The notes below the pieces were generated by a model. The model saw nothing but the letters and a program-made list of their open reading frames with translations, searched no databases and was not told the origin of the DNA. A stretch of 63,852 nt of DNA, counting the filler, from Hausera hauseri (taxonomy: Eukaryota), in NCBI GenBank assembly GCA_046269625.1. It is 12 parts of 12 records of this genome, joined end to end, with 100 filler letters (N's around TTAATTAATTAA, not from the genome) between each part and the next. Parts side by side here need not be neighbours in the genome. Positions count along the whole stretch, not along the records: positions 23,858 to 28,746 come from JBJURY010402479.1; positions 28,847 to 33,481 come from JBJURY010495464.1; 10 more parts are not named here. The stretch is one strand, 5' to 3'. The position numbers were made by a program, and so were the translations under genes. Below are positions 15,683 through 52,840 of the stretch, piece after piece (the first letter of the stretch is position 1; every line of letters begins with the position of its first letter).

Positions 15683-17399
15683 AGACTACATGTATAGTTA
15701 CTTTGATTGAAGATTTTCATATTATGGAGAATATTTTAAAGAAAGTAAATATGGACGTTACATCTATGTATTTAAATGGAAGTGGTATTCGTTCGTCATT
15801 CGACGGGGAAATCAAGGATTTACTGGCCCAATTTCCACGGAACAAATGTCAGGTACCACTTAGACCATTTACGACCAATGTGGACAAATCCACGCGGTAC
15901 CAATGGGTGAAACTAACGCACAATGGGGTAAGTTATGATGTTGTGTATCATTTTGTCGGCATCCTTTTTTATACATCTTTTAAGGATAAATTTTCTTCCA
16001 TGATATTACCATATTTTTTCCTACAGCTGTACAGTCGATTTTTGTTACTACACACAATGTCCGAACCGCGATAGCTACTTACCTACTACTTCACACGAAG
16101 CCACAGAAATCATTATATTCCGTCATTCCCTTTTTCCCCTGTAACTATCGTGATGAAACCTTTTACGGATTTTCAGTCTATGTTAGTACGAAATAACCCA
16201 CTGTATTCTTATATTGTCTTATCCGTATTGCTATCTACCGATGTCTTACAATCATTGCCAACAATCTTTACCTTGTACTATCGTGATAATACGTTCAAGT
16301 ATTACGTTAATGACTAGCTTCGTCCCTTGTTGTCGCTTCGGAACGGATCAATGGCGCACTTTCATAGTTTTCGGGGTACTCCAGTCCCCAAGATTGGAAT
16401 TCACCATTTTATGAAAACATCAGCTCTGTCAACACTTCTGAACATATTAGAATATTGGGGCATTATTACAAACGATAAACTCCGTACATCTCTTCTCCGT
16501 ACATTCTTCACGCTGTTTTTGAACTTCAACTCCGGAAATTTCATTTCTGACTTTCTTACAGTATCACCTTTTGTTGTCGTTAAAATTTCGTTACTCTTTG
16601 AACCGGTGTACCACATTTTTTGCATGGAGGGCTACGTCGTTCCGCTTACTTTACACCTGTACACATTCCACAAAATATTTTACAATTATGGCCCAGTTGT
16701 TAGCTTTCTACCAACATATTTTGTACGTGACGTTGATACTCATAGCGGGCGTTTTTTTGATGACATTGAAAGGTACTCCAAGTTTACAACATTTTGTTCC
16801 ATACTTATTCACTTTTACCCATGTTGGAGTTTTACTACCATGGAAACTTTCGTTAATGCCAAGGAAATTGTGATACCTTCAGACATATTTTATCATCATC
16901 TTGTTTCGCTTTCCACTACCTGGGCTGATACGCCGTTTTGCACCCGTACACACCTAATTTGGAATAAATTGCTCCTTTTTTGACATTTCATTTTTAAATA
17001 ACCGATACATACCTAAATCGAGGTTTATCCCTGACTAGGCCCACCCGAGAGAACTCAGTTTCCCCGGATCTGCCGGTGCGTCACAGTGACCGACTACCCA
17101 ACCGTTTATCCAATGTCAATGAGTCCCATGACTTGATGTGTTCCGTCACCGCACCAACCACTTAGGCTTACACCGACTCTTTCCTTTTTATTCTTTCTCA
17201 ATAATTACCATGTACTCACACACAGAATAACACATCTCATATATGCATCCAACTTGCACAATTATGCATTACAGGTCACCAACATCTCTGACTTTTATCT
17301 CAAATACAACAACCTACCCGTAACTAATGTCAACCTTCGTAATCTTTCTGTTCCTTCAACCTATTGTATCATCATTCACATACATATTCGCATACGTGG

Positions 17400-23857: not shown

Positions 23858-26800
23858 ACGTATGCACCATCGGGGCATCGCGCATTCCGGCATTTTTCAC
23901 ATAGAATATAGCTTCTTTTAGTTTCTGGTGGCTGCAGTATTCTGCTGTAATTAATACCTTGGGGTAGTCTTTACTTGTCGAGTAATGGATGTTTTCTTGT
24001 GATTTTTTTCTTAAATACATTTACTTCAGTAAACATTTGTGTAGAATCGTTTTCTGACTTCCTTCTTGGTGCTGGGATTTTAACTTTTCTCTGAACCTTC
24101 TGGGACTAGATTACATCTACTTCATTTTGTGATTCACTACTCCTAGAATTAGTTTGGGAATATCCCACTGTTTTCTTCTTTTCCTTTTGCGTCTCTCCTT
24201 TCCTTGGAATATGTTTTTTTTTCGGGCGATTTTATTTCCTTTACTGATTTCTTCTGTCCTTTGACTTCTTCACGGTTTCTTTTTTTAAAAAGCTAGTCGT
24301 AAAGTGATTGTTTCCTCTTATTGACAGTGACTGTGGTTTCGGTTTTCTTCTTTTTTGAGTAATTACCCCTTTCACGGTATATTTTGGATTTTTTGGTGTT
24401 TTTATTTGTGGCCTTATCGCTCCTTGTGTGTGTTCGTAGTTTTTGTAATACATCCGTATTGCGAATGTATAAGTGTTTCCATAATTTATGACGTAACATC
24501 TCTCTTGAGCTCCATATGGAAGATCACAATGGATAATCGCCTGCTTATTCGCGTTCCAGAGAACTACTTGGTATTTTACTGCTCTTCTAACGGTTCTGTC
24601 GGTTCCAAATAGAGCACAGCTTCTTATTGGATGTATGCTTCGGATATTGACCTGCTTTAGACCCAAGGGCCAGTAGTATTTGTTTAGTACCCTATCTAAC
24701 GTCTTTTTTCCAGGACATGTGTCCAGCTAAATACGAATCATGTTCATCCATTAAAACTTCTGTTCGTACATTTTTGGTATCGCTACTAGTTTCCTTCTTT
24801 TTCGTTCATAGTACGGCACACTTTCGTTACCTTTGTTTGTGGAAACACAATATTTGTGTCCATGTCGCTGTAAGTGCTTCGTTAACTGGTGACCTTTAGG
24901 CATTACGTCAGTTTCAGCATGCTCAATGATTTGCTGGATAATCTTACTTTTCTTTTGTTCAATCGAGATTTTGACTGCTTTATCTAACGTTAGGATGCGC
25001 TGTAGATTTACGAACTCTTCGAGTTTATTTTTCTTCATTGTCATAATAGCACTCGCTTTTGTCTTGCGCCTTGATAATGCATACGCATCAATATGTTTAG
25101 TACCAGGATTATATTGAAATTCGATATTATACCTCAAAATTTCTTTGATCCATCTATTCAACCAGCATGTAGGGTTATATGCTGGTCTTTTTAAAGTTGT
25201 AACTACTTTGTGGTCCGTAACTATTATTATCCTCTGTCCATATATGTAGACATTTAAGTGTCTTAAGGCTTCTTTCACAACTAACGTTTTTAATTCCGTT
25301 ACTGAATAATTTTTCTCGGCTTTCTTTAAGGAGTGCCCTCCATAAGCGATTGGATGTTCCAGTTCTTCGTCCTCGCGTTTCTGTGCTAACTCATTCTATA
25401 CCTTCTTTACTTGCGTCTGTCTTAATGATAAATAGTAAACTAAAATCGGGGTATCTCAGCACTGGTTCACTAGTTAATATCTTCATCTCGTCGAAAGCTT
25501 TTTGTTCAACGTCTGTAAATTTCCATTTGATACCCTTCTTCAATAATCGGTATAATGGCACATATATTTTTAAATTATCTGGTACATAAGTAGCGTAATA
25601 TCCACATAGGCTTAGCCAATGTCTTAATTCTTTTTGGTTCTGAGGTTCCATACAGTCCGAAATTTTGTTCAATAATGATTTATCTGGTTTTGATCCTCCT
25701 TCGCCAACTATATGACCAAGGTAAAATATGGCATTATGAGCCCATTTACACTTCTTTGGATTTACTTTTAACTCAGCTTGTTCTAATCTCATAAGTGTGT
25801 TTTCCATGTCTTTTAGATGCTCTTTTTCTGTTTTTGATGCTAATATTACGTCGTCTAAGTACGCAAATGCATGCTCGAGTCCCATTAACATTTTTCATCA
25901 TTCTGGTGAAAATAGCTGGATCGGTGGTAATTCCTAACGGCATAACGTTAAATTCATTTACCCCATCTTGAGTTTTAAACGCTGTTTTATAGCGATCCTC
26001 ATCTTCAATTTCTACTTGCCAATATCCGGATTGTAAGTCCCGAATGGCAAACCATTTTGCTCCTAAGAGCCTATCTAGAGCCTCTTTTACGTATGGTAGG
26101 GGAAAAGAATTTTTCATAATAAGAGTATTTAACTCTCTGTAATCGATACAAAACCGATGTTTTGTGGTACCTTTCTTTTTGATCATAAGAATGGGTGAAT
26201 ACCAAGATCTAAAACTTGGCCTAATTATATCGATCTTAAGCATTTGTTCTACTTCCTTAGTTATTTCGGGTCTTAAGGAATGTGGTGCTGGATACCATTT
26301 TGTCATTTTCTGCTCTTCAAGATCAATTTCCTCATTGGAATCAGGCTTTTTCCTAAGTGGTATAGTCAGCTTTAACGCTTTTGCTCGACAGATGTCTTCT
26401 TCGTCCTTTGCAATAATTGACTTATATCGACATAGTAATTCATAAAATTGACAATAGGCTTCTGGTGAGAATTTAGTATCTACGTGCGGTGGAAATTCAG
26501 CATATTTATATGGTTTCTCTTCAACAGTTATTGCTGATACTTTGTAAGTGTGACCCAAAGTAGTGTTAGCGTATAATTTTACTGGAATTTGTGCATTGTT
26601 CACTATTCTGACTAGTATTCGACCAGATGCTACAGGGGTTAATATACTACTCAGTATTATACTTGGGTTTAACGTTTCTCTCGCCTCGAAATATTCTGGT
26701 AAGTCGTTGTCTTGACAGATATGTGCAAATATTAACAATTCCGTTCTAGATGGGATATTTTCTTCAACAGAATCCATACTTCCCCAAATTCTCTTTATTA

Positions 26801-28746
26801 ATTTTTGTTCCTTTTATCGGTCCGAGTTCAATTAGCTTCGAGGTGTTTAAGTATACCGCTATATTTGGTAGACGCCTTAATACATCGCATCCTAATACTA
26901 CGCCATCCGTTAAGTGTTCCATTATAGAAAATTCATGTTGGAATGTTTGTTCCATTATCTTGATATTAGTATCCCATTTAAATTTCGGTCTCGATCCTTA
27001 TCCAAAAGCTCCGATGCTTCCGGGGTCGGTTGCTAGCGGTAACAGCAGTTGATTTCGTAATGCTTTTGGTACTGATCTGTCATTTATGAATGATTTCTCT
27101 GATCCAATATACTAATTTTGGCGAAGGGTCTACCTTCTTTTATCCTAGACTGTTTAACAGAGGATACCTTGTGCCCATTTATACTTATTTCTGGTATGCG
27201 ACTAGTATCTTCGGCTATCTGTCTCAATTCATTAGAGGGATATAATCCGTTATTTACGCAGTTTTCATCGTCTCGTTCTTGCGTACTGATTAATGGTTCT
27301 TGATTGTTTGAATTACGAAAAGATTGCATATGTGGACTATCTCAAATCGATGATTTGGTTTCTACGTTTCGTGGGATCCTTGGGAAATATATTACCCTGT
27401 GATCGATGACAAAATTCCGATTTTTCTCTAGTTCCGTACATCTTCCGTAACGCACCGTATTGCTTTGTCCCTTCATAAGGGTCTTCATAGCTAAAAGGTT
27501 TCCTATAGATTTCCGACCTGTAAGAGTTAATTGATCTTTTATCACAGTCCTCATATAATGGCGCCGAAGGGCGCAGCATAAGGAGAGATGGTTTTATAAC
27601 CGAGTGTGCCTTATGTTTACTTATTTTTGAGACCACGTTTCCTCACTTAGGTTCGTCGTCATCTGATTCGTTTCTTCGTAATTTTATATCCCTTTGTCCT
27701 ATGAAGAATACGTGTTTTCTCTTTCGTTTCCGATTATAATAGCCAACATGTCTTTGAATGTTGCTTTTCCATTTGCTGTCTTCATAAGCCTTCAAAAATT
27801 TTCCGAAAGGCGTTATAATTGCTGTCAAAATTTTAGACGAAAATCCAGTTAAGGTAAATATTTCATAACCATTTATAACGGATTGAATTACTGCCTTAAT
27901 GAGTTGTACTAAAAAATATATAGCTAAAAATCCAGATGTAGCTTGTACGAAAATTAAAAATATTCCCCTGATCTTGTATAATATCTCCGTGGTGACTCTT
28001 TGATAATTATTGGCACCAAATAAAGATTCCCGTTTTGCCTGATAGTGGTATCGTCTATCACTGTTGATATAGCTCTATTCAAGTCATGTGTACGCTGATG
28101 AGGAAAAGTTAGAAACTGTCTAAGAGCCTCAATTTCCTTTGATCTGTAAATTGCGTTACTCGTGGTGTCAGCGAATTTATCATTCGTTATACCCTTTAGC
28201 AAATTCGTTCCTGTTAGTTTGTTAGGTGTATTTGTTATTCATCCATTTGGCAGGCTTACCCAATCTGTCTCACTTATCCTAAACATACGTTCTCCCAAGT
28301 CTGATTTACATTCCTTCAGAATTGTTCTTTGCTTTGAGTTTTCCAGTAAGACTCTTGTAAGTAGCATAGCTAATCGAGGTACGTTATGGTATAGGATTGG
28401 CAATTCTTGTCTACAGCGTTTTTCGTCTACATTTTTCAATTTCGTATGTTAACGGAACTTCTCCGGCAACTCTTTCGAAAATACCTACTTTCATTGTAAT
28501 TACGGGAGAAGCTAATTCCGAGTTGGCATATATTAAGGCCAATTTGGTCCTCATGATTTCTATGTCAAACTTATAGTCATTCGCGATCATTTTGTGATAT
28601 AAATCTGCTATCCCGGCTTGCCATTAATAATAAAAGTGATGGTCTCTGTTTCTCAAGTAGTCTTCTATTCTTACGTCTTGTGTTTCCAACGTAAAGGTAG
28701 TTATTGCAGCTTCTGCTACAAAGAATGCTCCGTAATATGTGGCATA
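23858..28746 (-). mobile_element. Gypsy-type element A: env C-terminal half, linker, degenerate PR, RT, RNase H, start of integrase
   Basis: Env RVAGEV...CRQELPILY...AIYRSKEIEALRQFLTFP and TM VQATSGFLAIYFLVQLIK (about 27640-28746); RT RFCIDYRELN, DLQSGYWQV, YLDD; RNase H KTDASKEG, TDHK; integrase Zn region GHMSWKKTLDRVLNKYYWP. Confidence 0.9.
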
Positions 28747-28846
28747 NNNNNNNNNNNNNNNNNNNNNNNNNNNNNNNNNNNNNNNNNNNNTTAATTAATT
28801 AANNNNNNNNNNNNNNNNNNNNNNNNNNNNNNNNNNNNNNNNNNNN

Positions 28847-31800
28847 AACATGCAACTGAAACCAATATGTTTACCGGCGTATCCAAGTCAGCATTTTATA
28901 ATAAGAAAGAGATCGGTTTGTTTGTGAAGTTTTTGGCATATCCAAAACAAAGAGAACAAATCGTAAATCGAGGGGTACATCGAGTAATAGATGACACAGC
29001 AGGAGAAGGAAAATGGGATTGATTATGGACTCCGGATGCCTATAACAAAATTGTCTCAAATTTGTGGTATAAAATGTGAGGAGGATTTCTAAGATTTGGC
29101 CAAGTAACCTCAGGGTTTCTGGCAATCTACTTCATTATACAAATTTTAAAAGTTTGTATCAACTCTGTACTGAATGCTAATAAAATTTACAATCTAACAG
29201 AACTATCGTTGAGTATAATAGGTGCTTTATTTTCTCCAATTGGCAAATTCATTAAAGCCTACCATGAAACACAATGGCGAAGTAAATTAGAAAAACATGT
29301 TGACTACAAGTCAGAGAAACAATTTCCAAAGGATACCTCATCAAGTTCAGATGATAATACTGCCCCTGAATATTGTCGTACAACAGGGATTCCTAAGAAC
29401 AAGAGAAGACAATTCAAATTTATGAAACCGAAGACAAAGAAAAAGCACAAATTACCTGCTGCACCACATGAGAGTAAAACAATGCCTATTTGTAAATTCC
29501 CTAACCTAACAGATTTAACGGAGTCTTACGCGAAGAAAGAAGATTACATAAAATTACGTAGCTTACCAAAACACTATCAGGAAGAGATACGTCAATCTAT
29601 TATTACACGAAATATGGAAAATAATCGAATAACATTACCAATGTCACCTAAACTGGGCATGATACCACCAGTACCTTATCACCAAGTAACCAGATTAATA
29701 GAAGTTCAACCAGACAGAAAATCCCATTTTTCAACTTCAATATTTAAACCCAATAATAAGCAGCAGACAATATCAAAGCATTCAACTCGCTACCCAGACT
29801 TGACCGAACTCAAGGATAAAGCCAAAGGGTCAGAAAATGATACACAATCACAAGAAAGTCTAACGGCCATATTAACTAACGGCACTCCCCGATACTGTTC
29901 AGCCAGTTATACCTTGATGGAACCTCACAGATGATCACAACGACGTCCTAACATTTCTCGAATTACTAAGAGATAATCGACCTCACACTACAGTTCATTT
30001 CGGTACTTTTGACCTTAACACTATGGTAGATACGGGAGCGAACGTGGCATGATTAGCGAAACAGTCAATTCCTGAAAATTTACAATATCAAATAAAATTA
30101 GCCACCAAGGATTCGCTCAGTACCATTTCAGCCTTCCAGCAGTGTAACAAACCTTATGGATAATGGAAATGTGAACCATGAATTTTCGGACAAAGAATCA
30201 AAATAACTTTCGACGTAATGACCACCTTAGATCCAAGATGGATCCTAGGGATGAATGTCTTACGGAAATTACAGGGTGTTCACATAAATCTACAATCTGG
30301 ATCAATTATCCCTAATAACGAAAATATTTCTCATACCTACGATAAAGCAGACATATGGGTAGGACATGCTGAGAAAATACAACCCAATTCCAGGATAGTC
30401 ATACATGCTAGAACGATATTTTCAGACAATAGTGTAATCGAGTTCGTACAGAAAATACTCCAAAACTGACTTATACTGCCACATTATTGCGTTAACGTAG
30501 TCGGAGGATCTATCCACATAGAAATTTTAAATCCGACACCAAATATGCCACATTATTCACTAAGATGAAACTTGGACGGGCCCTGGAAACTACTCATCAT
30601 GAGGAATACAACAGTAAAATCGCAATTACCTCAACCCAAGGTGAAGAAAAGGAAGAAGATGTAATTGATATTGTTCTCGCAAAAGCGAAGAAAAACTTAT
30701 TATATGAATATCTAGAAAACTTCTTCGATCTCATTTTTGAGTATCTTGACATTTTTGCCAAAGACGAAACAGATATAGGACTAACTGATTTGGTCAAATT
30801 CAAACTATCATTTATGATTGACCCATTATCAGGAAAAGAAATAGACTTGTTGCGACAACCCATACCAAAGTGGTACCCTCCTCCGAAAGCACTCTAAAAG
30901 GAAATTGAGGAACAGATTCAAACTATGTTAAGCAAGGGTATCAGAGCCTAGTCAATCGCCATGGACGTCACCTATAGTAATGGCTACAAAGGTTAATACG
31001 GCAAAACACCGTTTGTGTGTAAATTACGTTACCTTAAGTAAGCACTTAATGAATCACGCTTATCCGATTCCTCGAATACGAAACATTATAGACGAACTAA
31101 AAGATTGTAAGTATTTCACTACATTAGATTTACAAAGTGGTTTTTGGCAAATACCCAAAGCTGCAGAAGATCGGTGGAAAAATGCGTTTAAGACCCTACA
31201 AGAGTTTATCAATTTACACGTATGCCATTTGGTTTGAAAACGGCACCCACCTTCTTCCAAAAATTTATTCGTTTGGTATTAAAAGGAGTACGAGGATTAT
31301 CATACATTGACGACATTCTAATCGCATCCAGGACATGGTCGGCAAATCTAGTAGAGTTAAAAGAAGTATTTGAACGAATTAGGCTTGCAAAATTAAAGCT
31401 AAATCTGAGAAAATGTGAATGGTGCAAGAAGGAAGTGAGATACCTTGGATTTGTTGTCTCCCACCAAGGTATATCTACCAGTCCTGATTTGATATCTAAA
31501 ATATTGGAATATCCCCCACCAACTAACGTACACGAGATGAAAGCTTGGTTAGGATTGGGAGGATTTTACGCTACCTTTATAGCCGACTTTGCAGAAATTA
31601 ACCAGCCTCAATATAAACCATTAAGAAAGGACCAAAAATGGGAATGGACAGAAGAGAAGCAGAATGCTTTTGACGAGATCAAAAGGCGAATGGTATCAGC
31701 ACCGATACTGAGATACCCGGACTTTTCACGTTTGTTCATTCTGAAAACTGACGCAAGTATAAAAGCTATTAGTTATATATTAGCTTAGCAAGACCCCGAC

Positions 31801-33481
31801 GAAACAACTGAACATGTAATTGCCTATGGAGGACGAAGTTTAAATAATGCAGATCGAAAATACTCAACCATTGAATTAGAGCTACTAGCCATTCAGGATG
31901 TATTGCGACATTACAAATATTTTGTTTATGGTCATAAAATTATATTTACAGATCACAAAGCACTGTTATCCCTACGCTCCGACAATAGGCATGTATCAAG
32001 CCGACTCGAAAGATGGAAGTTAGAGCTTCTGAACTATGACCTTGAGTATCGATATCGTCCAGGAAAAGAAAATACGGATGGAGACGCCCTTTCGAGAATA
32101 CCATACGAAAGAATAGTCGCAGCAGCCCATAAGCCAATAGATAACGGAAGCGATAAACAATTGAACGAAAAAATTATCAACGATATGTTACAAGAACAAC
32201 GACAAATTCAGGTCCGGAGTATAGAGACTTTACAAAATCAAGATCCATTCATTGTTGAAGTCAAATAATTACTCAATGGACAGTTAGTTGGCCCAGTATC
32301 TAATTCAATTCAACAATTTTATACAAAACACAGAGAGAATCTAGAAATTGAAAATGGCATTTTAAGACTAAAAGTCGGTGAGCGATAACTGATCATTGTT
32401 CCCACACCAGCAATTAAATCTGTTATACTTCAAGAACATGATTCACACTTAGCTGGACATCCGTCCTTAAATAAGACTCTGAAGCGTATAACTGCAAAGT
32501 ATTATTGGCCTCAAATGAATAAACATATTGAAGGATGGGTTCGTTTGTGTAAAATATGTGATACACGAAAAGACAGAGGGTTCCGTGTTTAACATTTTTT
32601 GGCCAGTCTACCTGAAGCTCGGAAACCAATGGAAGTGTGTTCAATGGATATCTCTGGACCCTTTCCAATTTCCGATTCAGGATACAAATATATATTATCA
32701 CTTGTTGACTATTTCTGTCTCTATGTTGTACTAGTACCCTTAATAACATGACTAGTGACACCGTGGCGGAAGCCTTTTTCTATGCGATTGTAGCCGTACT
32801 GGTCGCACCGAAGCAGTTATTAACTGATCGCGCTCCATATTTCATCAGCGAATTATTCGAAAAACTATTGAAAATATTTCACTGTAAACATCTGTTGACT
32901 ACATCCTACCATCCGCAATGCAACGGTATGGTTGAAAGGATGAATTGTACAATCCCAGGTATTCTTTTTACAAAAGTAGCACATGATCAAAAGGATTGGC
33001 ATAATCATTTAAAAACTACTGCCTTTGCAATCAATACTACACCAACTAAGGATACTAATCATTCACCTTTCGAATTAATGTTCGGACAATTACCTTTATT
33101 ACCATGAGATACGGAATTATTACCATCATCCTTATTGACAAGTGACCACATGCATGAGCAATATCAGAATTTGAATACTTCCAAAAAGAAGCGAAAGAAT
33201 TTGAAGAAAAATACAGAGCCGGATATAAAAACAATTTAATAAGAAGGCACGACCACATACCTACAAAATCGGCGATTACATAATGGTTCATTATCACTCT
33301 GCAAAGTAAAGTAAGTTGTTAAAATTAACACGTACTGGACAAAGACCATACAAAGTTGTTGATGTGCGCCCACAGACACTTTGTCCAGAATGGACCAAAC
33401 AAATACGAAGCGGTCTCTGTTCAACGAGTAACGCGAGCCCCTGCACCATACAACGACTTTATTCGGGAAACAAATACTGAT
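28847..33481 (+). mobile_element. Gypsy-type element B: env C-terminus, linker, PR, RT, RNase H, integrase
   Basis: GGFLRFGQVTSGFLAIYFIIQILK (about 29080-29150) runs into ORF 29209-29934. PR MVDTGANV near 30025; RT LDLQSGFWQI, YIDD; RNase H KTDAS, TDHK; integrase H...GHP...YYWP...CKIC, LTDRA, YHPQCNGMVER. Confidence 0.92.
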
Positions 33482-34051: not shown

Positions 34052-35330
34052 TCAAATAAATAACGCCGCACCGTAAGTTTTGTGTTTCAGGTAATTTCTT
34101 GTGGGAAAAATGCAGAGAAAAGTTTGCATGGTCTTAAATCGCCAATTTGGAAATACGTGTTTGATACTTAACAGAGTCACATGGGGATTTATAATCGAAA
34201 CAGTTTTATTATTCACGACTCCAACAAAACCTCGTTTATATGCGTCATACTGGGTTTTACAATCAACGAGAGAAAAGACAATAATTTCTAGTTGATTATT
34301 TTCGTCCGTTTGTGACTTTACTATTAAACATACAAGCTCGCCAACTGTTTTCACCGATGCTAGAAATGTAGAATGTTTTCCTTCCAATTGATCATCATGC
34401 AGAAAAAGGTTTATATGTATGGTCGTATTGTACAATGAAGCATGATCGGGCATCGTATAGAATAAAGCATTCCGTACTTCAAACGGACTATTCTTCTCAA
34501 CACTGCCATACTGTTCAATCGTACTAAATCCCTTGTTTATAGACAAGGTAGATACACATGACGTTTGCGCATGATATGTGTGATCCTGTACTAATTTCAC
34601 ATCTACGGCCACATAAAACAGAAATACCACGTCGTCAATATAAAATGATGAATACAATCTATTAGAATAATCCAATTTTCTCCATGATATAATGTTTATC
34701 ATATTACTCACAAAATCTCGTAAAGAATAACTGAATACTTCCATAAATTGCGTACTATTCAAATGATTATTATTATTAAGTATAATTCGTATGTGACTAT
34801 TTGTTACGACTAAATTTGTAACTTTTACGGGATAGTTGAAGAAGTTTAAAATCTGTTCCGTTAGTATTCGAATATTACCAATGGTAAAATGAGATTTGGA
34901 TGTGAACCCACATACAGGAAATAGCTTTTCACTGACGTCTTGATTTTGACAAATGACAAACAGTAGACACATAGTTAAAGGTGTACTGAAATCATTAATC
35001 GCTTTATTTTCAAGGAAATCTAGAGATTGGAATATAGTTTTGAAAAATGGTTTAAGAAGGTTTGTGAACACATAATTAAATATCACACAACGAATGGTAT
35101 GGACTAAACGTTTATATGCACGTAAGGCAAGTCCAAAACCACTTTTGTGACCATGTAAACAAGATTCAGGTATTTTCCTACTTACAAAACCAAGGGAAGG
35201 CGATGTTGTGTCAACTATATAATGGGCAAAGGAGTAGTGGAAAAGTGGGTAAGAAATATTGTGAATAAAAAATGTATGAAAAAAATAATCGCCGACCGAA
35301 CAATGCATAATGGAGAATCTCACCTCGTCA
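34052..35330 (-). CDS. Unidentified ~425-aa open frame continuing in frame from the SSRP1 Rtt106-like domain
   Basis: Long stop-free frame in AT-rich DNA. It is not the acidic/HMG tail expected for SSRP1. Confidence 0.4.
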
Positions 35331-36600
35331 CTGCTCAAAGCGTATTTTTTTGCTTTTATAAAGTCTATAAATCTGGAATACTCGCTCTTGTCTATTCCAC
35401 TGGGCGTATGTACCGCACCATTCTGAGTTTCGGTATCAGAATCGAATGACCGTTGCGCAACTGAGGCTCGGGATAGGTTTACGACTGATATTTCTACGCC
35501 ACGCAAACTAATACATGGCTTCGAGAAGAATATGAAACTTTTTTTGATAGGGTTCAGGAAACTAGACAGTTTTGTAAATACCAGAAATCGATCTGGTCTT
35601 AGTCTTGCTTTCAAATTTGTTGGGTACTGTCAACCTTAGATTGTACAGATTCTTGAACAATTTTGTCGTAATTTCGTATGTCAGTCCTGATAATCTGTGT
35701 AAAATACTCTCATTATAATTCTCTTTTAAAAAATCCTCCTTGCACTGTAACTCCACTGTTTCCTCGTTTTCATTATTAAGCGACAATATAATGTAATAAC
35801 ATTTAGTTTGGTCATGTGTTAACAGAAGGTTAACTTGCATCACAAAGAATATGTGCCTTTCGTCCAAATATGGCAACAAGAAAAACCGTACAAAATGATC
35901 TTTTGACACACTGTAATAATATATTTTACTACGCAAATGTATGAAATTTTGACACAGTTTGATAATGTATCGCTTGCGAGGTTGTAGGCAGTGCATTTTC
36001 TTCAAAGTAACCAGAGAATCCGCCTAATTATTTACGGTGTTTGTCTCGCTTTTTACGCGCAAGTACAAATCCTCCATAATATTTTCTTTCTGTGAAACTG
36101 TTGCAAATTGCCTTACACAAATAGGAAATGCATCTTCGGTAGATTGAAATTGTATTGTTAATTGGTTCTTCGACAGATTGACATTAATCACATCTTGGAA
36201 ATTTATGTCAAAACAACGCAGATTGTTAACTAGAAATTTTATATATTCGTCGTTAATGTTTGGTTTCCTCTCATTCCGGCCTACCACACAATTATCAATA
36301 TTGACCACAGAAATTTCATAATTTACTTGAAAAAATTTCGAAACTTTGTCACACTCATTTTCCGAAAATCCATCAAAATAAACTCGTTTTTTATTGAGAA
36401 ATTTTAAGCACAGTCCGAATCCTCTAGCACGAAAGAACCATTCTGCAGAACGAATTTGTTTGGACTCAAAGTGACCGCTTTTCCCGGTTTTCTCATTTTT
36501 ATAATAAATTGTCGGCAGAGTTAATTTGACTTTCATTTCGGAACACGATCCAAGCTGTTCGTAATAAAGATTGTCAAGTACATACGTATTCTGCACTTGT
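35330..36600 (-). pseudogene. SSRP1: SSRP1/POB3 (FACT subunit) divergent copy covering the PH and Rtt106-like domains
   Basis: YKNEKTGK...YFDGFSENECDKVSKFF; CLQPRKRY...RFFLLPYLDERHIFFV...SGLTYE...TVPNKF; FIFFSKP...QRSFD...IDKSEYSRFIDFIKAK. In-frame TAG at 36024-36026 and a frameshift near 35570. Confidence 0.88.
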
Positions 36601-36828
36601 CTTTGAACAATGGCGAACTTCCTTTTCAAATTGTACTGTAATCTTGATATCATTAATAAATAATCATCCGTTGAAACTCCCATATCGTTGTAATAACTCG
36701 TTAATTTCGGTGAGCAGTATTTCTGAATTGGTTTCTCTTCAGTCGATTTTTGAATTGGATAGAAAAATATGGAATAGAATCGCTCAAGGTTCTTGTTAAG
36801 CATTTGGACCATTTTACAGCTGAGAATA

Positions 36829-37545
36829 TTAGTCTTCAAAATTTGGTGTTGGGAATAGAATTTTCATTGATTCAAAATTTTTAAATTCGTGTCTCTGACA
36901 GAATTCAAACAGGGTATCTATCAGAGGTCTCAATCGGTGATATGTAAAGTCATTTTCATAAAATTCATTTTCCATCTGACTAACCGGTTCAGCCCACAGA
37001 GGTGTTTCCGGATAGTTTTGCGGTACCTTGATAAAAAACAGAAATTTATGATATCCATCTGAATCCGAAAAGACATTAAGTTTCAAACTGACGTTGAGTT
37101 TCAATTTTGTAAAATCCATCAGTTGAATTAGAATATTTTTATGGTAGTTTTGATGTATTGATCGAAATAACACTGATAATTCATTGTTTAATTCTTGGCC
37201 ATACTCTCTCATTAATACCATGAAATCGATGGATAATAATACATTAAAATAATATAACAATACATTAAGACTGCCTTTGTTTGTTGCGTATGTAAGAAAA
37301 GTTGATGTCGATTCGAAACTTGTAATGTATTCATTGGAATGTGCTTGGTCGGGAAACGTTTTTCTTGGTCGACCATTCTTTCGGTCATTCTCACCAGTAT
37401 TTTCCATCAACTGCAACCTTAATTTTCTATCATACCACGCTGCAGCATAATTGTCATTCGACTGAAGTTTTGTAATGTTCTTAATGAATTCTTGTTCTGA
37501 CACCAGATGTTGTTTTATTAATATTATATTTACAAGTAATAGCAA
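36829..37545 (-). CDS. Hypothetical protein with a possible RWD/UBC-like fold
   Basis: 238-aa ORF; FFIKVPQNYPETP resembles the PxxYPxxP motif of UBC/RWD folds. Confidence 0.35.
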   Translation of the reverse strand: MLLLVNIILIKQHLVSEQEFIKNITKLQSNDNYAAAWYDRKLRLQLMENTGENDRKNGRPRKTFPDQAHSNEYITSFESTSTFLTYATNKGSLNVLLYYFNVLLSIDFMVLMREYGQELNNELSVLFRSIHQNYHKNILIQLMDFTKLKLNVSLKLNVFSDSDGYHKFLFFIKVPQNYPETPLWAEPVSQMENEFYENDFTYHRLRPLIDTLFEFCQRHEFKNFESMKILFPTPNFED

Positions 37546-39134
37546 AAGATCTGAGAAAACAAAAATTATATTTCAAAATTTAAAAGAAAAATCATAATAA
37601 TGAAAGACGTGATACAGACAATGTAGATAAATTTGACTTTGTTGTTGTTGTGGGGGTTAGGACAATCAACATTGTTCTGCAATGCAAATAGAAACACACA
37701 TTGTAAAGACACATGTGGTAGAAATTCAAATTACCTGACAGCTATCTCTTCCTAAACTTTATTCAGCTTATCTTTTTTTTTATATTTGGTTTCAAATAAA
37801 ACTCCAATAAACTGTAGACATTGATTATTGAGTGCCCAGTACTGTTAAATACTGTACAACAAAATGTTGCACATTTTGTATTACATTCTGAATACATATT
37901 AGAAAAAAAACTGTATTTCACATAACTAAAACTTGGGCCTTGATTGTGTTTTGATGCCATTTCACAATTAAATAATTCACAATTTGGTAACCATCGGTTC
38001 TCATAATAAACACACCATATATTTCTGTATTATGACATCTTGACAGATAAAACAATCTTGTTACTGAAAGATAAAACAACCTTGCTAGAGATCAGTCACA
38101 CCCGATTAACTTTATCACTGAATTAGATCACAAGACACAACATCTGAATCCTTAGCATCAAACTGAATAATTTTCCTTAAATATTATATATAATGATTTT
38201 AATTTATTAAGCAAAATTCTATCATCGTTAGATATAAATATAATACATAAAGCGTAACTGTGAAATTCCACGTTCATTCACTAACTAACTACTATGCCAA
38301 TGTTTATGATTTTGTCTGTCTTTATCAATACACAACTGACCTTGATCACAAAACACAAAAACAAGTTACGCAAACACATTATGTTTTAAAATAAACAGAC
38401 AGTAAATCAAAATTGCACTCTGTGACAGAAGATTGTCAGAAACTGTCAGAAAGGTCCAAAAAGTCTGACGATCGCTACAAGACAGACTGCACCTCTGTAT
38501 GATAATAGATTTGTTGTTTAAAGTGTGGCTGGAACAAAATGGCTCTCTCCATCGGTTGAGGGGGGGCTAGCTTGAGTTCTCACTATTCCCACCCTCTCCA
38601 CCTTAATGGAAGTTTCACACTAAGAACCACTTGTATGTTAAAGCATTATTTTCTCATGCATGGAATTGAAATTAGTCAATAGGCTTAAAACGTAAAAATA
38701 ATGTTTGATTGACAGTTCCCCAAAACATACTTAATTAACTGTTTAGTTTGATACAAAGTTGCTAAACGTCTTCACTTTAGCGACTCTCGCCCAGAGCTGC
38801 AGCAAATAGAGTCAAATGCTGAAGCCATTAAAATAATGCAGGGAGTGGAAAATGTAAGAAATTATCCAATCCATGATTTTTTGCCACTCAACAGTTCAGA
38901 AGATCAGGATTCTAATACAGACCCTGAAAGCACAGCAGATATAGAACATGTATATGAAAACCAAGGAATGATAACAAGAGCTCAGACATATGAGTCTTTG
39001 AACCAGCCTGTAACTTCAGCACACTTTACATACANNNNNNNNNNNNNNNNNNNNNNNNNNNNNNNNNNNNNNNNNNNNTTAATTAATTAANNNNNNNNNN
39101 NNNNNNNNNNNNNNNNNNNNNNNNNNNNNNNNNN

Positions 39135-40220
39135 CATCAGGGAATTCGGCGGGATCCTTTATTATTCCGTCCGATATTGCTGAGAGATATATCCTGTTTC
39201 TGATTATTTCTCTTAATTTTACAGCCATTTAGAATTATTTCACGGTACATTGTATAAATATTCTTTTGATGAAAATGATAAACAAAATCCCACTAATTAT
39301 CAAAGTATAGATGTCGTTCCACTTCTGATTTATCAATTTTTCTTTTTGCATCAACTATTATAGTTGTTGACAAAAATATTCTTTTAGAGTACGTTCGGTA
39401 TATTACCCGGTTACATCTCTTTGCATCACTTTTTATTTTGAATCTCATCCTTTTGTTTGAGTCTTCAGAGTATACAATAGTTGGAATCTCAACCATATAT
39501 GACACTCGATCTAATCTGCTTTTCGATATTTTTTTCTTATACATTTGTCCTTCGGTTTCATTAAACTTTCCGCATATTCAATGGCATTGATATTTATCGA
39601 CTTCGTATCCAATGTTGATTCACCTGTATCACATTTTTTGTTGTAATAATCACACTTAAGGAATATCATAATTTTTCCTTATTCCAATTCGAACACGGCA
39701 TAATATTCTCTCAACTCAATTTGATAACCCTCGATAGCTAATACATTATCCAGAATTTCCCCATTTATATTGTAATATTCTCCCTTACAATATCCTGTCT
39801 TATCAATTGCTCCAGCTACAAAAATTCTTTTGTTAATAACTTTTCCTTTTTGAGCCTTTAACCGAATACTTCCGATATTAATTTGTTTTGTTACAAAAGC
39901 CTCGATACTTACTTCAAACAAAGTAGCAGGTTCTATTATGGCTGAGTTTTTATACCAGTAACCACAAATAAAGTGAACGTGATTCTTTCGCACGAAACAT
40001 TCTATAACTTTAGTTTTCGCAAATATCGATTCTTGATAAACGTGATATTCCTTACCGAATGTTGTAGTTAGCGATGCCGGATTGGCATATGTACATTTCT
40101 CTATGTCTAGCAATAAGTATATCGGACCTTCCTTTTCCTGACTATAGTAATATGCGATGACAGAAAATGTTTTCTGAATAAAATTGAATAACAGAAGTAC
40201 ATGTAGGACTTTAATTACCC
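39135..40220 (-). pseudogene. Chuvirus-like envelope glycoprotein, N-terminal half (element D)
   Basis: Hydrophobic WVIKVLHVLLLFNLF, then SVIAY...LLDIEKC...YQES...KVIECFV...FICG...AGAIDKTGYCKG...KCDYYNKKCDTGES, a Cys pattern like chuviral-type G proteins. Confidence 0.72.
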
Positions 40221-42100
40221 AAAATAGATCAAGATCTCGCTATTGGTTCTGCTGTCTTTCTTGTTCGCGTGATGGAAAATTTTCTGTTTATCTCTGGACT
40301 GCCGATTCTTGTATTGTTATTTGAATCAGGCTACTGATCCATCCAACTGTACATTTTAACCATCCTTCTACATTAGCTTTTAATGATCTTATGGCTATTT
40401 CTATATTTCTCTATATCTCCTTTTGGTTTGGATTTATACCATTCATCACCATTACTTTATACAGGGGGTACGATACAGTCGTTACAATTTTACTTCTAAA
40501 TATATTCGTTCCTATCATTCTGGAAAGTATACCTCTTCCTGGTAACTTGTTTATTTTCTCATCCGTATGAATATCTGCAAACTGCTCACTAATTTTTGCT
40601 ATTTCATTCCCAATGATCTGCATTAGTGAGTCTGGTATTTGCAAATTTGTATTGAACTAAATGAATGCATTGTGCATTCTTACTAATAAGGTTTTCAGCA
40701 TTGTTATCAATGAGACATTACTTGCATCATGATCGCCTTCAGTTGTTAGCAATCTTCGGACAACTTCATCACCTCTTGCTTTTCTGCCTTTCAATTTATG
40801 CAGCTTTGCCGTTCATTTATGTCCATCTCGATTCCTTTTATCGATCTGAATCTGTTCTGATATAGGAATATTTGCTTAAATTCCTGTTTGTTGAACTTCA
40901 TAATTTACTTCAGTTCTTGCATACCTTTCTGTCTGACTTCAATGAAAATTTCTTCTAATATTTGTTGTTCGGTTTATCTAAAAGACATGTAAATCGGATT
41001 ATATCTTTTTCCCACATACCTACTTTGTACATGGTTTCATAATCTCCCAACATCCGTCCGCGGAAAGTAAACATGAATTACTTCATTAATATTGTTTCAG
41101 TGCAGCTATTATATCGAACGACTTCAGTCTCAAAGCATGAAAATATTGATTATATTGTTGAAGGGTAACCACTACTATGGTTTTCACTAACCATTCTTAT
41201 TCTATCTGTGTTTCAATAAATTATATATCGTACAGAATTTTGGTGTGAACTCTTGTTAGCAGCGTATATTAACAACAGGTCCAATAAATTTGGAAACTGT
41301 TGATGTCTAACTGTAGGTAATAACAACATTTTGAGATCCTATCTGAATTGAGTGCCTTCATTTAATTCTTGATTTGCGGAAATCGTCATTTTTCATACTA
41401 TTTCTATGCCATCTTGGTCCAAATCTATAGGTGAAGTTTTCAACTGTTGAGGTAATTCTTTCACTTTCTTATTCTTTTTAGCTTCTCGACTTGGGCACTT
41501 TTTTCACTACCTGAGGAAGGAGATGACTCAGGAGTTCCTAATTCCTCTTCGTATATAAGAGGTTTGTTTTTTCTTTTAATCTTTTCATTTCGACATCTGA
41601 TTCTGATGCAGGGTTCCTTTTAGGCCTGTATACCAGAGCGATGATTGAATTATTATTATTCATTTTGTGCCACTCTTCGCAAATTTATTGCTCTTTTAAC
41701 TCTATATATAGCTGCTTTAGCTACTTTATACTCATAATCTTTTATCATATTTGTTTTACTTTCCTTCAGCTTAGCTCTAATCTTTTCTTGGAGCTTTTCT
41801 ATTGCATCTCTGAATCTGTATTTATAATTTCGTGCTCATTATCTGTATCGGATATATTACCAATTATATCAACACTTTTCTTTTTCAAGCTTGACTGTCC
41901 TTGACTGGACCAGGAACGCGCCATGTATCTTACAGGCAAAGCATAGTGGTTGTCATCCTGATTAACCATGGCTTCTCCATTGTGGACTTTTGAGTTTGAC
42001 TCTGAAAAGTAACATTCTTCTGCTGTCGCTGAGGCTGATTCTGCAATTTTTGAACTGGCGTTTTAAAATATTTCTTTTGGTGAAAATTTTTCACTTTCTT
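40220..42100 (-). pseudogene. Degenerate ORF1 of element D (gag position; identity unresolved)
   Basis: Purine-rich coding-like strand with scattered stops between the PBS and env. Charged N-terminal part; no CCHC knuckle seen. Confidence 0.5.
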
Positions 42101-48787: not shown

Positions 48788-51700
48788 ACAGAGTAATCCA
48801 TTATTATACTGGGTCAGTGGCACCACTCTATTCTTCTTTGTAATTACAAGTGCAGGTACATTTTGATGAATGTAGTATAGGAATCCATCTTTCTCTTCGT
48901 ACGCATCGCAAAATCTGATAAAATTACGACTTAATTTGCTATCCTTTGGTATAATTTTGTTTTGTATATAATTTCTAATGCTTTTATTTCTTCATCTTCT
49001 CGTTGACTTTTTTTAGTATCTCTATGGATCCATTCATACTCCGTACAGCTGCAATTGCCTCTTTCTTTTCTACCTCTTTTTGCGGCATTCTTGATAAATA
49101 ATCCGCGTTCGAATTTTGTGTGACGGTCTTGTACTGAAAATCTAACGTATAAGGTTGAAGTTTTAAAGCCCATCGTAGTAGTCTATTATTGGGATTCTCA
49201 TGTTTCTTTAGCCATTGCAGTGGTCGATAATCTGTACAGATTACCAGCAGTTTATTCTCACTGATATACGGTGAGAATGCTTCAAAGACGAATATTACTG
49301 CTAGCAGTTCTTTTTCAATAACGGCATATTCCTTTTGATGTTTGTTTAATTTTCTCAACGCATAAGCAACTGTATGTTCTTTGCCATCTTCGCCCTTTTG
49401 TGATAATACCGCTCCTACTCCACAATCACTTTCATTCGTTGCCAATATGAATGGTTTGGTCATATCTGGGTAAATCAGAATAGAGGCGTTCTTTCAGGAC
49501 TTCGAAAGCCTTTTTGCAATTACTTATCCATGTTACCTTCTCTAAATCTTCACGTAATAATCCATATAGTGATTTGGCTATTTTACTAAAATTCTTTATA
49601 AATCTTCGATAATAGTTTGTGAGTCCTAAAAATCTGCGTAATTCATTAACATTAGTTGGTTTTGGGAAATCTTTAATTTTATTCAATAGTCTACCCTGGA
49701 ACTTTTCACCACATCTATCGACTCGATGTCCAAGAAAATCAACTTCGGTTTGGGCAAATGAACATTTCTTCGGGTTTACTTTTAAACCCATTACTTCGCA
49801 TCTATCAAAAAGGTATTGTAAGTCCTTCAAATACTGTTGGAAATCCGATGACGCTATGATTACGTTATCGATATATACCATAGCATGTGGTGCGTCTAGA
49901 AGTAATAATTCTGTTCCTCTTTGAAAAGTCGGGGGCTCATTATTTAATCCAAATTGCATTCTATTGAATTCCCATAACTCTTCGCCTATAGAAAAGGCCG
50001 TTTTCGGCTTAGCCTCTTCCTTTACTTCTACTTGCCAATATCCTTTCTGTACATCAATTTTAGTGAATATGGTTGAGCCATGCAACTTATCAAATATTTC
50101 GACAATCTTTGGTAATGGGTACGTGTCTGTTTCCGTTATTTCGTTTAATGCTCTATAATCTATACAGAATCTCATAGCTTCATCTTTTTTACCATCAATA
50201 CTGTAGCCGTCCATGGGAAGCAGCTGGGTCGTATTATTTTGTTTTTCCTCATATCATTTATAATCTTAGGAGATTCTTCCTTTTTGTCGTATTCCAATCT
50301 GTATGGTCGTTTCTTAATAGGTTTGTTTTGACCCTTCGTCAATTTGATCGCATGTTGTATTACGTTCATCGTTCCTAAATCATAATCATTCCGAGTGAAT
50401 CAGTTATTGTTTTTCTCTAACAGTTGGCTGTGCATTCTTCTTTCTTCATTAGATATATTACAATTTTGTAATTTTTCTTCCCAATTAAAGCTGGTAATTT
50501 CCTTCTCTCTGTTTTCATTTAGTTTTCCTTTTGGTTTCTTCGTCATAAGTTTCTCGATTTCCTCTACTTCTGACATTACTGAATTAATTGCTTCTTTTGG
50601 TACTTCTTAAACATCTGTTGCCTGCCCAAGTCTCATATTCTTTTTTATCCGCTTTTCTATTGCTCTCGTATTACAAATCCTCAAATAAATTTTTCCGTTC
50701 CTTATCCTATATGTGTGTGGTGCGACAAGGATATTATGCTTCTCCATTATTTGTGGAAACGGTTCAAAGTGCACACAGCTTGTCAGTGATCTGTACTCTA
50801 TTTTACCAGGCACTACTATCTCTGAACGTGGCAGAATTATAACATCTTTAATTAGTGAAACTGATCCTTCATATCGATCTTCAAACCTTCTTAGTTGTCC
50901 AGTTTTGACATCTATATACACATTATCCAATTGACACAATACATCACATCTGATTAGTATTTTGTTTGTTAAGTTTTTGGCCACTCTTATGGTATGGTTT
51001 ATTATTTGGCCACAGATTTTAATTTTTGCATCTAAAACTGTCTTTATCTCTACCTCCATACCAAATGCTCCCACATTAATCAATGTTTCTTCTGGTTTTC
51101 GCAATCTACTCACCAACTCCTTGGGTAATTGACTCTTCCCCATTATAGTAATAGTGAATTTCGTATCTATTAGGGCCTTTAATGGGTGTCCATCTACTTT
51201 AATGTCGATCTCAGGTCTTGTTGCTGACTGGGACCCGTTCTTACTACTCGTTTTGCACGTAGGTTTACGATTATATGATGTGGTATTCCCTTCATAATCC
51301 TGTTTCAAGCGTAGTACTCGATACGTGGGGTACATTCCTCCATGTTTCACATATTGAGGAGCTGATGGACTTAACATTTGTTCGTTATATATTTGTCCGT
51401 GATATTCATCTGCAGGATTTAACTGAGGTAAATCAGTAACCAGTTTTCGTCTATACTTCTGTCTTCGTGATTTTAATGAAAATCGTCTAAGTTTTATTAC
51501 ATATCTACCACTTCTGAATTTGATATTCAAATCATTTTCGTCCTCGTCATTTTTACTGTTTAGAGTACTATATGGCGAATTCTTCTCGATATTGTTATTT
51601 CTTTCTTTAAGTATTTTCCTTTTCCATCTTGCGTCATGATTTGCTAGGAAACAACTAGCAACTGCTGGTATTACCGCCATGAGGACTTTGCATGAGCATC

Positions 51701-52840
51701 CTACTGCTGCATGTATTCCGTAAGCTTTACCAAGTGCAGTGAATATCGTCCGTAGGGCACTGATGATGAAATATATTGCTAAAAATCCTGAAGCAGCCTG
51801 ACCAAAATGCAGGAATTTTCCCCACATCTTTTCCATAACATTTCTGGTGACTTTCTTCAAATAATCTCTTCCCATTAAATTTTCCCATTGTGGTGAACCT
51901 ACTCCATCTCACATCAGTCTTCTTGTTAACTCCGTTATTACTCGTTGTCTCTGCTGGGGAAACAGTAACATTCGTCGGTAGTCTTCTAAATTCTGCTGTG
52001 TATAAATTCCTCCTTGTGATATGCTGGTACGTGGTTCAAATTTCTGATTTCTTTGTCATTTAATTATACTTAACGTTTCTGGTTTTGCTACCGGTTCTCT
52101 TTTCGTCATTCTAATCCATTTATAGTCCAACTTATACATCGATGACATTGAAAGTAAATTATCCAATTGGGTTGGTCTTGTGTTAGCGTCTAATAATATT
52201 ATTGTTACTGGCATCACGTATCAAGGTAATTCCAAAATACATTCCTCCATAGGTCTAATAGCTACTTCTACCTTTTTACACTCAATAGTTATCAAAACTT
52301 CGCCCATTACTCTTCCAATCACCCCATCGCCAAATGGCATGATTGAAGATACCATGTCGGAATTGGTTATTACTAATGCCATCTCATTCCGTATTATTTG
52401 ATAATTCAGTTGGCATTCGTTCAGTATAATTTCTCTGCATAGACTTCTGATCTCTTTCCTGACGTAGTTGATTAAAAAGTCGATTTTATTACCAAAGTAT
52501 TGCATAAAATTTATATCCTTCTTATCTATTTTGGTTTTAGCTTGGGCTACTTCCTTAGACGAAAGGTATATGTCTTTGTAATTAGTTTTGGATATTTCTT
52601 CATTACACTTATTAATCGCTCCAATGATTTTAAATTGCATTATTTCTTCGGTATTTTCTTAATATACTACCGTTGCTACTTCCATCATCTTTACTTCATT
52701 AACTCTTTCCTTATATGTTGTCGAATCTCTTCCGGCCGTTTTTCCTACCTTCTTATTAAATTTTCCTTCCTTTAATAACGTAAGATGGTATTGATTCGAA
52801 CTAACGTCCCATGTCATTTTAGATTCTGTAGTATCACATT
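48788..52840 (-). mobile_element. Gypsy-type element C: env, linker, PR, RT, RNase H
   Basis: Env GVIGRVMGEVLITIECKKVEVAIRPMEECILELP and SQGGIYTQQNLEDYRRMLLFP. ORF 50607-51875 joins TM WGKFLHFGQAASGFLAIYFII to PR ALIDTKFTIT. RT RFCIDYRALN, YIDN; RNase H TNESDCGVGAVLSQ, TDYRPL. Confidence 0.92.

Follow-up and report, generated by a model that had tools for sequence, protein, structure and literature searches.

Can the envelope protein of a retroelement carry its own budding signals? P(T/S)AP binds TSG101 and YPxL binds ALIX in the budding of enveloped viruses, and such late domains are usually reported from Gag, matrix or nucleocapsid proteins. An earlier note on the DNA analyzed here (the window; 63,852 nucleotides from Hausera hauseri) had placed motifs of these kinds between env and the protease of three retroelement copies, as budding signals on an Env tail/Pol linker. 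The env in question is of the gB type.

Results

Three decayed Ty3/gypsy copies with env before pol

The window consists of 12 separate contigs joined by N spacers, and contigs 5, 6 and 10 hold copies A, B and C, respectively, three decayed Ty3/gypsy copies in which env precedes the protease and, in all cases (3/3), lies upstream of pol (Table 1). The Ty3/gypsy assignment is based on the order protease-RT-RNase H-integrase, which is complete in B and is followed in A and C as far as their contigs reach, and on Pfam matches to RVT_1, RT_RNaseH and Integrase_H2C2, with no BEL-type family matched. Profile searches place env of all three copies above the PF24664 cut-off of 27 bits, and we therefore class it as gB-type (class III; Monjiviricetes fusion). 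No Gag was found within the window, and neither Gag nor LTRs on the contigs of A, B and C, which measure 4.6-4.9 kb and end inside the elements; a gag upstream of env was seen only in relatives within the tree group of copy C, for example P0010 and P0012. The window's own copies are broken and unable to make particles. The family on contig 10 is highly repeated, with 13,557 and 1,619 contigs matched at 80% likeness in two sequencing runs, and a search for long homologues of copy C's ORF or env part found none at E 0.001 among 3,179 and 2,818 candidates, respectively, which is weak evidence.

The env-before-pol order has been published for GAG-ENV-POL HSV/gB-type errantiviruses of Platyhelminthes, Bryozoa and Nematoda (Chary and Hayashi, eLife 2026, PMC13524379). 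These elements share the Ty3/gypsy Pol, the gB-type env and the gene order with the window's copies, which differ in being broken and in having no Gag or LTRs on their own contigs. That study covers the ectodomains, and its main text contains no mention of late domain, ESCRT, PSAP, cytoplasmic, budding or polyprotein.

Table 1. Positions in the window of env, tail, motif and pol features of the three copies
Copy	Feature	Position	Strand	Evidence
A	C-terminal part of gB-type env, three pieces, cut by contig end	27805..28746	-	PF24664 50 bits; tblastn pieces
A	Membrane anchor	about 27874-27930	-	hydropathy
A	Predicted cytosolic tail, anchor's frame, interrupted by in-frame stop	27340..27777	-	
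A	In-frame stop within tail	27643-27645	-	
A	PSAP	27559..27570	-	translation
A	LYPSNEL (LYPx3L pattern), other frame past a break, shortly before protease remains	27225..27245	-	
A	Decayed protease end, RT, RNase H, start of integrase region	24667..26979	-	
B	End of env ectodomain and membrane anchor, cut by contig start	28849..29268	+	PF24664 40.7 bits
B	Membrane anchor	about 29116-29172	+	
B	Predicted cytosolic tail, open with anchor, ends at stop	29269..29931	+	
B	PAAP	29455-29466	+	translation
B	FPNL	29497-29508	+	translation
B	YPDL	29791..29802	+	translation
B	Decayed protease, RT, RNase H, integrase (zinc finger and core)	29969..33149	+	
C	Env ectodomain (in-frame stops) and membrane anchor	51633..52838	-	PF24664 77.6 and 57.2 bits
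C	Membrane anchor	about 51729-51785	-	
C	Predicted cytosolic tail	51219..51632	-	
C	PSAP	51357..51368	-	translation
C	MYPTY, non-canonical YP motif, not canonical YPxL	51321..51335	-	
C	Decayed protease, RT, RNase H	49011..51215	-	

Motifs in the three tails

Every motif listed in the earlier note, i.e., PSAP in A and C and YPDL, PAAP and FPNL in B, translates as claimed, and late-domain sequences are found in each copy (PSAP in A and C, YPDL in B, and an LYPx3L pattern in A). The YPDL of B and the PSAP of C share the open frame of the anchor. Copy C has a single open frame (ORF 50607-51908) running from anchor through tail to the degenerate protease, and in B the protease follows the tail's stop in a different frame. 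The PSAP of A is in the anchor's frame, but behind the in-frame stop. Two YP motifs, LYPSNEL in A and MYPTY in C, are additions to the earlier list, the latter 12 residues downstream of PSAP and 55 upstream of the protease aspartate.

The same note had described the linkers as otherwise unalignable. The tails indeed gave no significant alignment (A against C p 0.31, B against C p 0.09, and A against B p 0.028, the last owed to the 18 residues adjoining the membrane), yet the best local match of A and C is 9 residues around PSAP.

Single motif matches are cheap. Across its six frames the window contains YPxL 19 times (besides 4 matches spanning a stop) and P(T/S)AP 3 times, and the chance of any P(T/S)AP, YPxL or PPxY in a shuffled tail is 0.047 for A, 0.114 for B and 0.061 for C, with a product of 3e-4 that is a post hoc figure.

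Motifs are enriched across Env tails

With a query that covered the ectodomain and the anchor but went no further than 28 residues past the latter, and that lacked the motifs, we obtained 150 hits and from these 134 tails (12 rows fell short of the anchor end and 4 had tails of <20 residues, 16/150 in all). P(T/S)AP is present in 20 of the 134 tails and YPxL in 34, where residue shuffles give 1.1 and 1.5, and the hydrophobic-YPx-hydrophobic form [LIMV]YPx[LIVM] is present in 44, against 0.8 in shuffles. All three counts exceed the maximum of 1000 shuffles, so that the comparison with shuffled tails, set beforehand as a check, came out 18- to 57-fold in favor of the motifs. The excess persists against shuffles that keep dipeptides (3.6, 5.3 and 7.1 expected, in the same order) and against local shuffles over 12 residues (1.6, 2.2 and 1.2). 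An unbiased scan of 20,944 short patterns returned YP.L, LYP, IYP and PSAP as its top four. The 134 tails form 133 BLAST clusters, and on a tree that leaves out 3 short rows the motifs are scattered, with at least 19 and 34 changes. In a second set (10/88 rows dropped, leaving 78 tails, and 34 after de-duplication), 7 of the 34 tails contain P(T/S)AP (0.25 expected) and 11 contain YPxL (0.5 expected). Judged from these tail sequences, the motifs are kept across the Env family beyond chance, though both P(T/S)AP and YPx-hydrophobic are missing from 71 of the 134 tails, and 48 lack even relaxed forms.

Other candidates, namely PPxY, PAAP, FPxL, FPIV and acidic dileucine, are not supported as enriched tail motifs by the family counts. 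PPxY has a weak excess in the 134 tails (9 vs 3.0, or vs 4.3 in local shuffles) that was not replicated in the second set (1/78 tails), and PAAP and FPxL occur in none of the 134 related tails, so PAAP and FPNL in copy B are not supported.

The motifs belong to the Env tail

Is the position before Pol needed? The 123 tails not classed as protease-fused, of which 121 end in a stop within 300 residues, contain P(T/S)AP in 19 cases and YPxL in 30, the same as the overall rate. P(T/S)AP is also found in the tail of 8 named chu-like or related virus glycoproteins, two of which also have LYPxI; a single chu-like G searched against viral contigs gave no match. On this sequence evidence the motifs belong to the Env tail and not to Pol, because they are present on stand-alone Envs and on named chuvirus glycoproteins; among the stand-alone Envs, those with a name are the ones that can be assigned a source (viral, BEL/Pao, gypsy or host-domesticated). 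The placement on the Env tail is thus supported, and the Pol linker is not needed.

In the intact relatives, Gag, Env and protease form single reading frames. Among 12 Env-protease relatives of copy C's group, YP is present in 10 and YPx-hydrophobic in 7 (0.66 expected); 8 of the 10 have YP at 30-56 residues ahead of the protease aspartate, and with one more at 53 there are 9 in all, as in copy C (55). PSAP occurs in only 1 of the 12; YP is missing from 2, and of the 10 that have it 3 lack a hydrophobic residue at +3, which is also the kind of YP seen in copy C. In 9 polyproteins, only 2 of which have an upstream region resembling a whole Gag, the stretches ahead of Env add up to 3,152 residues; these contain a single YPxL and neither P(T/S)AP nor PPxY.

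A disordered tail facing the cytosol is a prediction from three features: one anchor, coil in the model, and a protease following in frame. A first hydrophobic segment >1.6 is present in 94% of the 134 sequences and a second in 12%, and the model of relative P0015 has a disordered, low-confidence coil after the anchor. The modelled fold of P0015 matches herpes gB at E 1e-15, whereas by sequence alone the matches to gB in the PDB were no better than weak (E 0.04 or worse).

Discussion

We consider it likely, with a probability of roughly 65%, that the motifs on gB-type Env tails act as late domains, i.e., that the tail of the fusogen recruits ESCRT; the recruiting partner would then likely be Env, in place of Gag or a matrix protein. 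Binding to TSG101 or ALIX, and particle release, we infer from motif identity only. An intact element would make one polyprotein, in which Gag stays cytosolic, a signal segment sends the Env ectodomain into the lumen and one anchor helix brings the chain back to the cytosol. Directly beneath the membrane, the disordered tail would offer TSG101 its P(T/S)AP and ALIX its hydrophobic-YPx-hydrophobic motif, with protease and Pol trailing after it. Env-coated buds, formed at the plasma membrane or endosome, would then be severed at their neck by ESCRT-III. A chuvirus-like virus probably donated the tail motifs along with the glycoprotein, and in that donor the G tail would serve where other viruses use a matrix protein.

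HIV-1 p6 contains PTAP and YPx(n)L late domains and the ALIX motif of EIAV p9 is YPDL, as given in passages of PMC8402826; the retroviral motifs resemble ours in type, in often being paired and in lying on a disordered stretch just before the protease, and differ in sitting on Gag, whereas the motifs here come after the Env membrane anchor. Passages of PMC8700025 and PMC6949946 describe transmembrane proteins whose motifs recruit ESCRT, namely Toxoplasma GRA14, with PTAP and then YPx(n)L on a cytosolic tail that recruits TSG101, and bluetongue virus NS3, with PSAP and PPRY late domains; neither is a fusogen, NS3 being non-structural and GRA14 not viral. The Chuviridae (Jingchuvirales) have the homologous glycoprotein (PF24664), with tail motifs in named members, and differ as free RNA viruses with G, N and L and only 2-3 major ORFs (PMC4384744). 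The literature searched yielded no description of motifs on chuvirus G tails, and the open literature searched no report of late domains on gB-type Env tails.

The most serious alternative, unlikely but well short of negligible, is that the motifs bind ESCRT adaptors and direct Env to multivesicular bodies, exosomes or lysosomes, so that the fusogen is withheld from the cell surface or delivered where assembly takes place, with scission left to Gag, nucleoprotein or ubiquitin. The same adaptors also sort cellular membrane proteins into vesicles (PMC9511404), the absence of motifs from about half of the tails means that they may be dispensable for release, and in an artovirus late-domain-like motifs are reported on other proteins, those of ORF I and III (PMC6394706). 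Against this, the Gag-side regions of the nine polyproteins are almost without motifs, and TSG101-type and ALIX-type motifs, which are independent, occur together in 12 of the 134 tails, as they do in HIV p6 and GRA14. Sorting and budding are also not exclusive.

It is improbable that the tyrosine motif serves endocytosis as a YxxPhi signal for AP-2/AP-1, like those on the tails of retroviral Env and herpes gB, and that PSAP arises simply from tails being rich in proline. In form YPxL does fit YxxPhi, sorting signals of the tyrosine and dileucine kinds are established on Env tails (in passages of PMC1592117), and YxxPhi without proline is in excess in the raw second set (52 vs 23 of 78); this excess comes from two large clusters of 23 and 18 tails and is gone after de-duplication (12 vs 9.4 of 34), and the first set has no excess of plain YxxPhi (41 vs 36) or of acidic dileucine (11 vs 8.3). 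In addition, L/I/V/M stands directly before YP in 61 of 77 occurrences and at +3 in 58 of 77, and P(T/S)AP survives the dipeptide and local shuffles, and P[TS]xP lacking the alanine shows no enrichment (19 vs 15).

We regard as very improbable that the motifs reflect chance or a general compositional bias of disordered invertebrate tails and have no function. Short motifs match often in the window, and P[^TS]AP likewise shows a mild excess (14 vs 5.8), but the excess over dipeptide shuffles is still 5- to 6-fold, the enrichment was replicated in the second set, and there is no excess of reversed motifs (0 and 3 in the 134 tails) or of the motifs in ectodomains (P(T/S)AP 0; YPxL 4 vs 8.7); the controls were shuffled tails, reversed motifs and ectodomains of this Env family. 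Least probable of all is that the linker is an old p6-like end of Gag, stranded ahead of the protease by an insertion of env between gag and pol. YP does lie at a fairly fixed distance before the protease, where lentiviral p6/p9 lie, but tails not classed as protease-fused and named chuvirus glycoproteins carry the motifs too.

Late domains on the fusogen tail remain our preferred reading. A wider version of it, which we put forward as speculative, would extend it to the whole class III fusogen family, i.e., chuviruses and invertebrate gB-type endogenous retroviruses. The glycoprotein tail would be the budding engine, standing in for a matrix protein in chuviruses and for the Gag late domain in the retroelements. 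With a single captured gene a retrotransposon would gain both entry and exit, which would account for the gene having been captured repeatedly, and the tail of Gag-Env-Pol elements would also tether Pol to the bud.

The finding bears on whether env-bearing invertebrate retroelements leave cells and on the budding of chuviruses, which have only G, N and L. A short tail peptide is directly testable against TSG101 and ALIX. The retention of the motifs in otherwise unalignable tails points to selection for a function in exit or sorting, and a fusogen with its own late domain would, if true, be a new placement for such motifs.

Late-domain-like motifs in the three window copies

The window, from an animal host, is made up of 12 unrelated contigs of 4.3-8.7 kb each with N spacers between them, and three of these contigs carry the Ty3/gypsy copies A, B and C, in each of which the end of env is present as a Pfam match to PF24664 (Monjiviricetes fusion) and is followed by protease, RT and RNase H, with an integrase in copy B. 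Stops and frame changes disrupt all three copies, and the copy C family has a high repeat number in two public sequencing runs. The motifs that an earlier note placed between env and protease all translate at their positions. The tails of A, B and C, the predicted cytosolic stretches after the membrane anchor, show no significant alignment; between A and C, the highest-scoring match surrounds PSAP. The frame of the anchor is open and contains YPDL in copy B and PSAP in copy C, where it continues into the protease and MYPTY lies 12 residues past PSAP. In copy A, PSAP shares the anchor frame but is downstream of a stop, and an additional LYPSNEL lies beyond a frame break. The three copies by themselves are little proof, because YPxL matches are frequent in the six frames of the window.

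Coordinates of motifs and other features in the window
Feature	Position	Strand	Contig
Protein-primed polymerase B + endonuclease VII ORF	3386-4453	+	
Protein-primed polymerase B + endonuclease VII ORF	8373-9614	-	
Dna2, long intron-less host gene piece	14535-15710	+	3
PSAP, copy A	27559-27570	-	5
YPDL, copy B	29791-29802	+	6
SSRP1, MEIOB, WDR19, stacked, long, intron-less host gene pieces	34052-37572	-	7
Fourth env piece, N-terminal half	39140-40578	-	8
PSAP, copy C	51357-51368	-	10
Extra RT fragment	52841-53218	-	
Clathrin heavy chain, long intron-less host gene piece	60249-62369	+	12

The contig of the fourth env piece ends before the tail, and the stretch upstream of this piece resembles the start of P0009, an intact relative among the database matches. 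The extra RT fragment adjoins the upstream end of the copy C env and may reflect a nested element or recombination. The two polymerase B ORFs, on adjacent contigs, are 74% alike across 552 nt and, by resemblance, are presumably Polinton-like.

Enrichment across the Env family

Using the copy C ectodomain, anchor and next 28 residues as the query, with stops as X, we searched 1.84 billion representatives; the motifs were omitted from the query, and the ranking was therefore unable to favor motif-bearing proteins. Tails of at least 20 residues (median length 61) were obtained from 134 of the best 150 matches. P(T/S)AP was present in 20 of 134 tails versus 1.1 in shuffles (maximum 6), YPxL in 34 versus 1.5 (maximum 8) and [LIMV]YPx[LIVM] in 44 versus 0.8 (maximum 5), so that the first two, both listed for counting in the earlier note, are well above shuffles across the family. 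Enrichment of PPxY, also on that list, was unsupported, and no excess in the 134 tails was seen for PAAP or FPxL (the pattern of the FPNL it had reported), nor for reversed motifs, plain YxxPhi or acidic dileucine. P(T/S)AP was absent from the ectodomains of the same set. YP.L, LYP, IYP and PSAP took the top ranks among 20,944 patterns in an unbiased scan. The excess was 5- to 6-fold under dipeptide-keeping shuffles, which, like local shuffles, always fell below the observed counts. These controls (shuffled tails, reversed motifs and family ectodomains) all come from within the Env family. The 134 tails form 133 BLAST clusters, and the motifs are dispersed across a FastTree tree (132 rows).

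A second set of 88 new proteins, those with names all hymenopteran, gave 78 tails, with P(T/S)AP in 16 and YPxL in 11; reduced to 34 clusters, the counts were 7 versus 0.25 and 11 versus 0.5, respectively. A YxxPhi excess in the unreduced set was gone after de-duplication. Large hymenopteran-type clusters in this set (P0155-P0242) have a proline-free tyrosine-xx-leucine-xxx-leucine tail stretch, possibly a replacement signal.

The motifs accompany the glycoprotein

Copy C falls inside a supported 12-row group of the tree, almost all Env-protease fusions. Intact members such as P0010 and P0012 are single reading frames that run from a capsid-like region and a zinc knuckle through a hydrophobic segment to Env, followed by its anchor, the tail and the protease. 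YP occurs in 10 of the 12 linkers of this group, 30-56 residues ahead of the protease aspartate in 9 of those 10, and PSAP in only 1 of 12. Upstream of Env, 9 polyproteins (3,152 residues, with only 2 whole-looking Gags) contain no P(T/S)AP and one YPxL. Among the 123 tails outside the protease-fused class, the motifs are as frequent as in the whole set, and 8 of 20 matches chosen for their motifs are named as viruses: Soybean thrips chu-like virus 2, Neuropteran chu-related virus OKIAV150, Fushun oxya chinensis chuvirus 1, Wufeng shrew chuvirus 2, Wenling fish chu-like virus, Hubei lepidoptera virus 4, Sanya chuvirus 1 and Amblyomma dissimile mivirus. As this choice was biased toward motifs, it demonstrates presence on virus-named proteins and not frequency, and part of these records could be endogenous copies. 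Since tails outside the protease-fused class and chuvirus-named glycoproteins carry the motifs, these go with the glycoprotein and not with Pol or Gag; of the proposed "Env tail/Pol linker" location, the Env tail is retained and the Pol part is not.

In the intact relatives P0006, P0007, P0008, P0009, P0012 and P0152, at least two retropepsin-like D[TS]G motifs lie behind the Env tail; this tandem arrangement might allow the proteases to dimerize within one chain while the polyprotein is tethered to the membrane. A further polyprotein of the family with Env and Pol, P0005, is filed under a Flavobacteriaceae MAG and probably derives from animal DNA within a bacterial bin.

Past the ectodomain come two hydrophobic segments. 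Of the 134 proteins, 94% have a first segment above 1.6 and 12% a second one above this value, so a single crossing plus a helix lying on the membrane is likely. A protease in frame behind the tail would require the cytosolic side. The model of the relative P0015 (mean pLDDT 77) resembles herpesvirus gB by structure comparison, and its tail is without structure.

Published context and proposed role

The env-before-pol order of such elements is already published (PMC13524379); its main text has no mention of late domain, ESCRT, PSAP, cytoplasmic or budding, and its supplements may mention tail motifs. In the mostly open literature covered, we found late domains described neither for errantivirus Env tails nor for the G tails of chuviruses, and passages of PMC1592117, PMC7923801 and bioRxiv 2024.11.25.625296 add nothing further. 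In an artovirus, such motifs are located on ORF I and III rather than G (PMC6394706). Chuviruses encode G, N and L, with only 2-3 major ORFs (PMC4384744, where the word "matrix" does not occur), and some have an additional "viral particle protein" (PMC7642597), which could be matrix-like.

The identity of the motifs leads us to predict adaptor binding and scission, and to this extent the earlier interpretation as budding signals is partly supported: tail motifs under the membrane would draw in TSG101 and ALIX, and ESCRT-III would then sever buds coated with Env, a reading to which we assign a probability of about 0.65. YPDL is the ALIX motif of EIAV p9 (PMC8402826), and Toxoplasma GRA14 (PMC8700025) and bluetongue NS3 (PMC6949946) are membrane proteins able to act by such motifs. 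Counting against ESCRT-dependent budding are the 71 of 134 tails with neither motif, several non-canonical YP sites in the copy C group, the lack of PPxY support in family tails and the restriction of the controls to the Env family; the main rival, that ESCRT serves to sort Env with no role in scission, we consider unlikely. The motifs themselves are confirmed, and the partly supported interpretation now covers a fusogen family instead of three dead copies alone.
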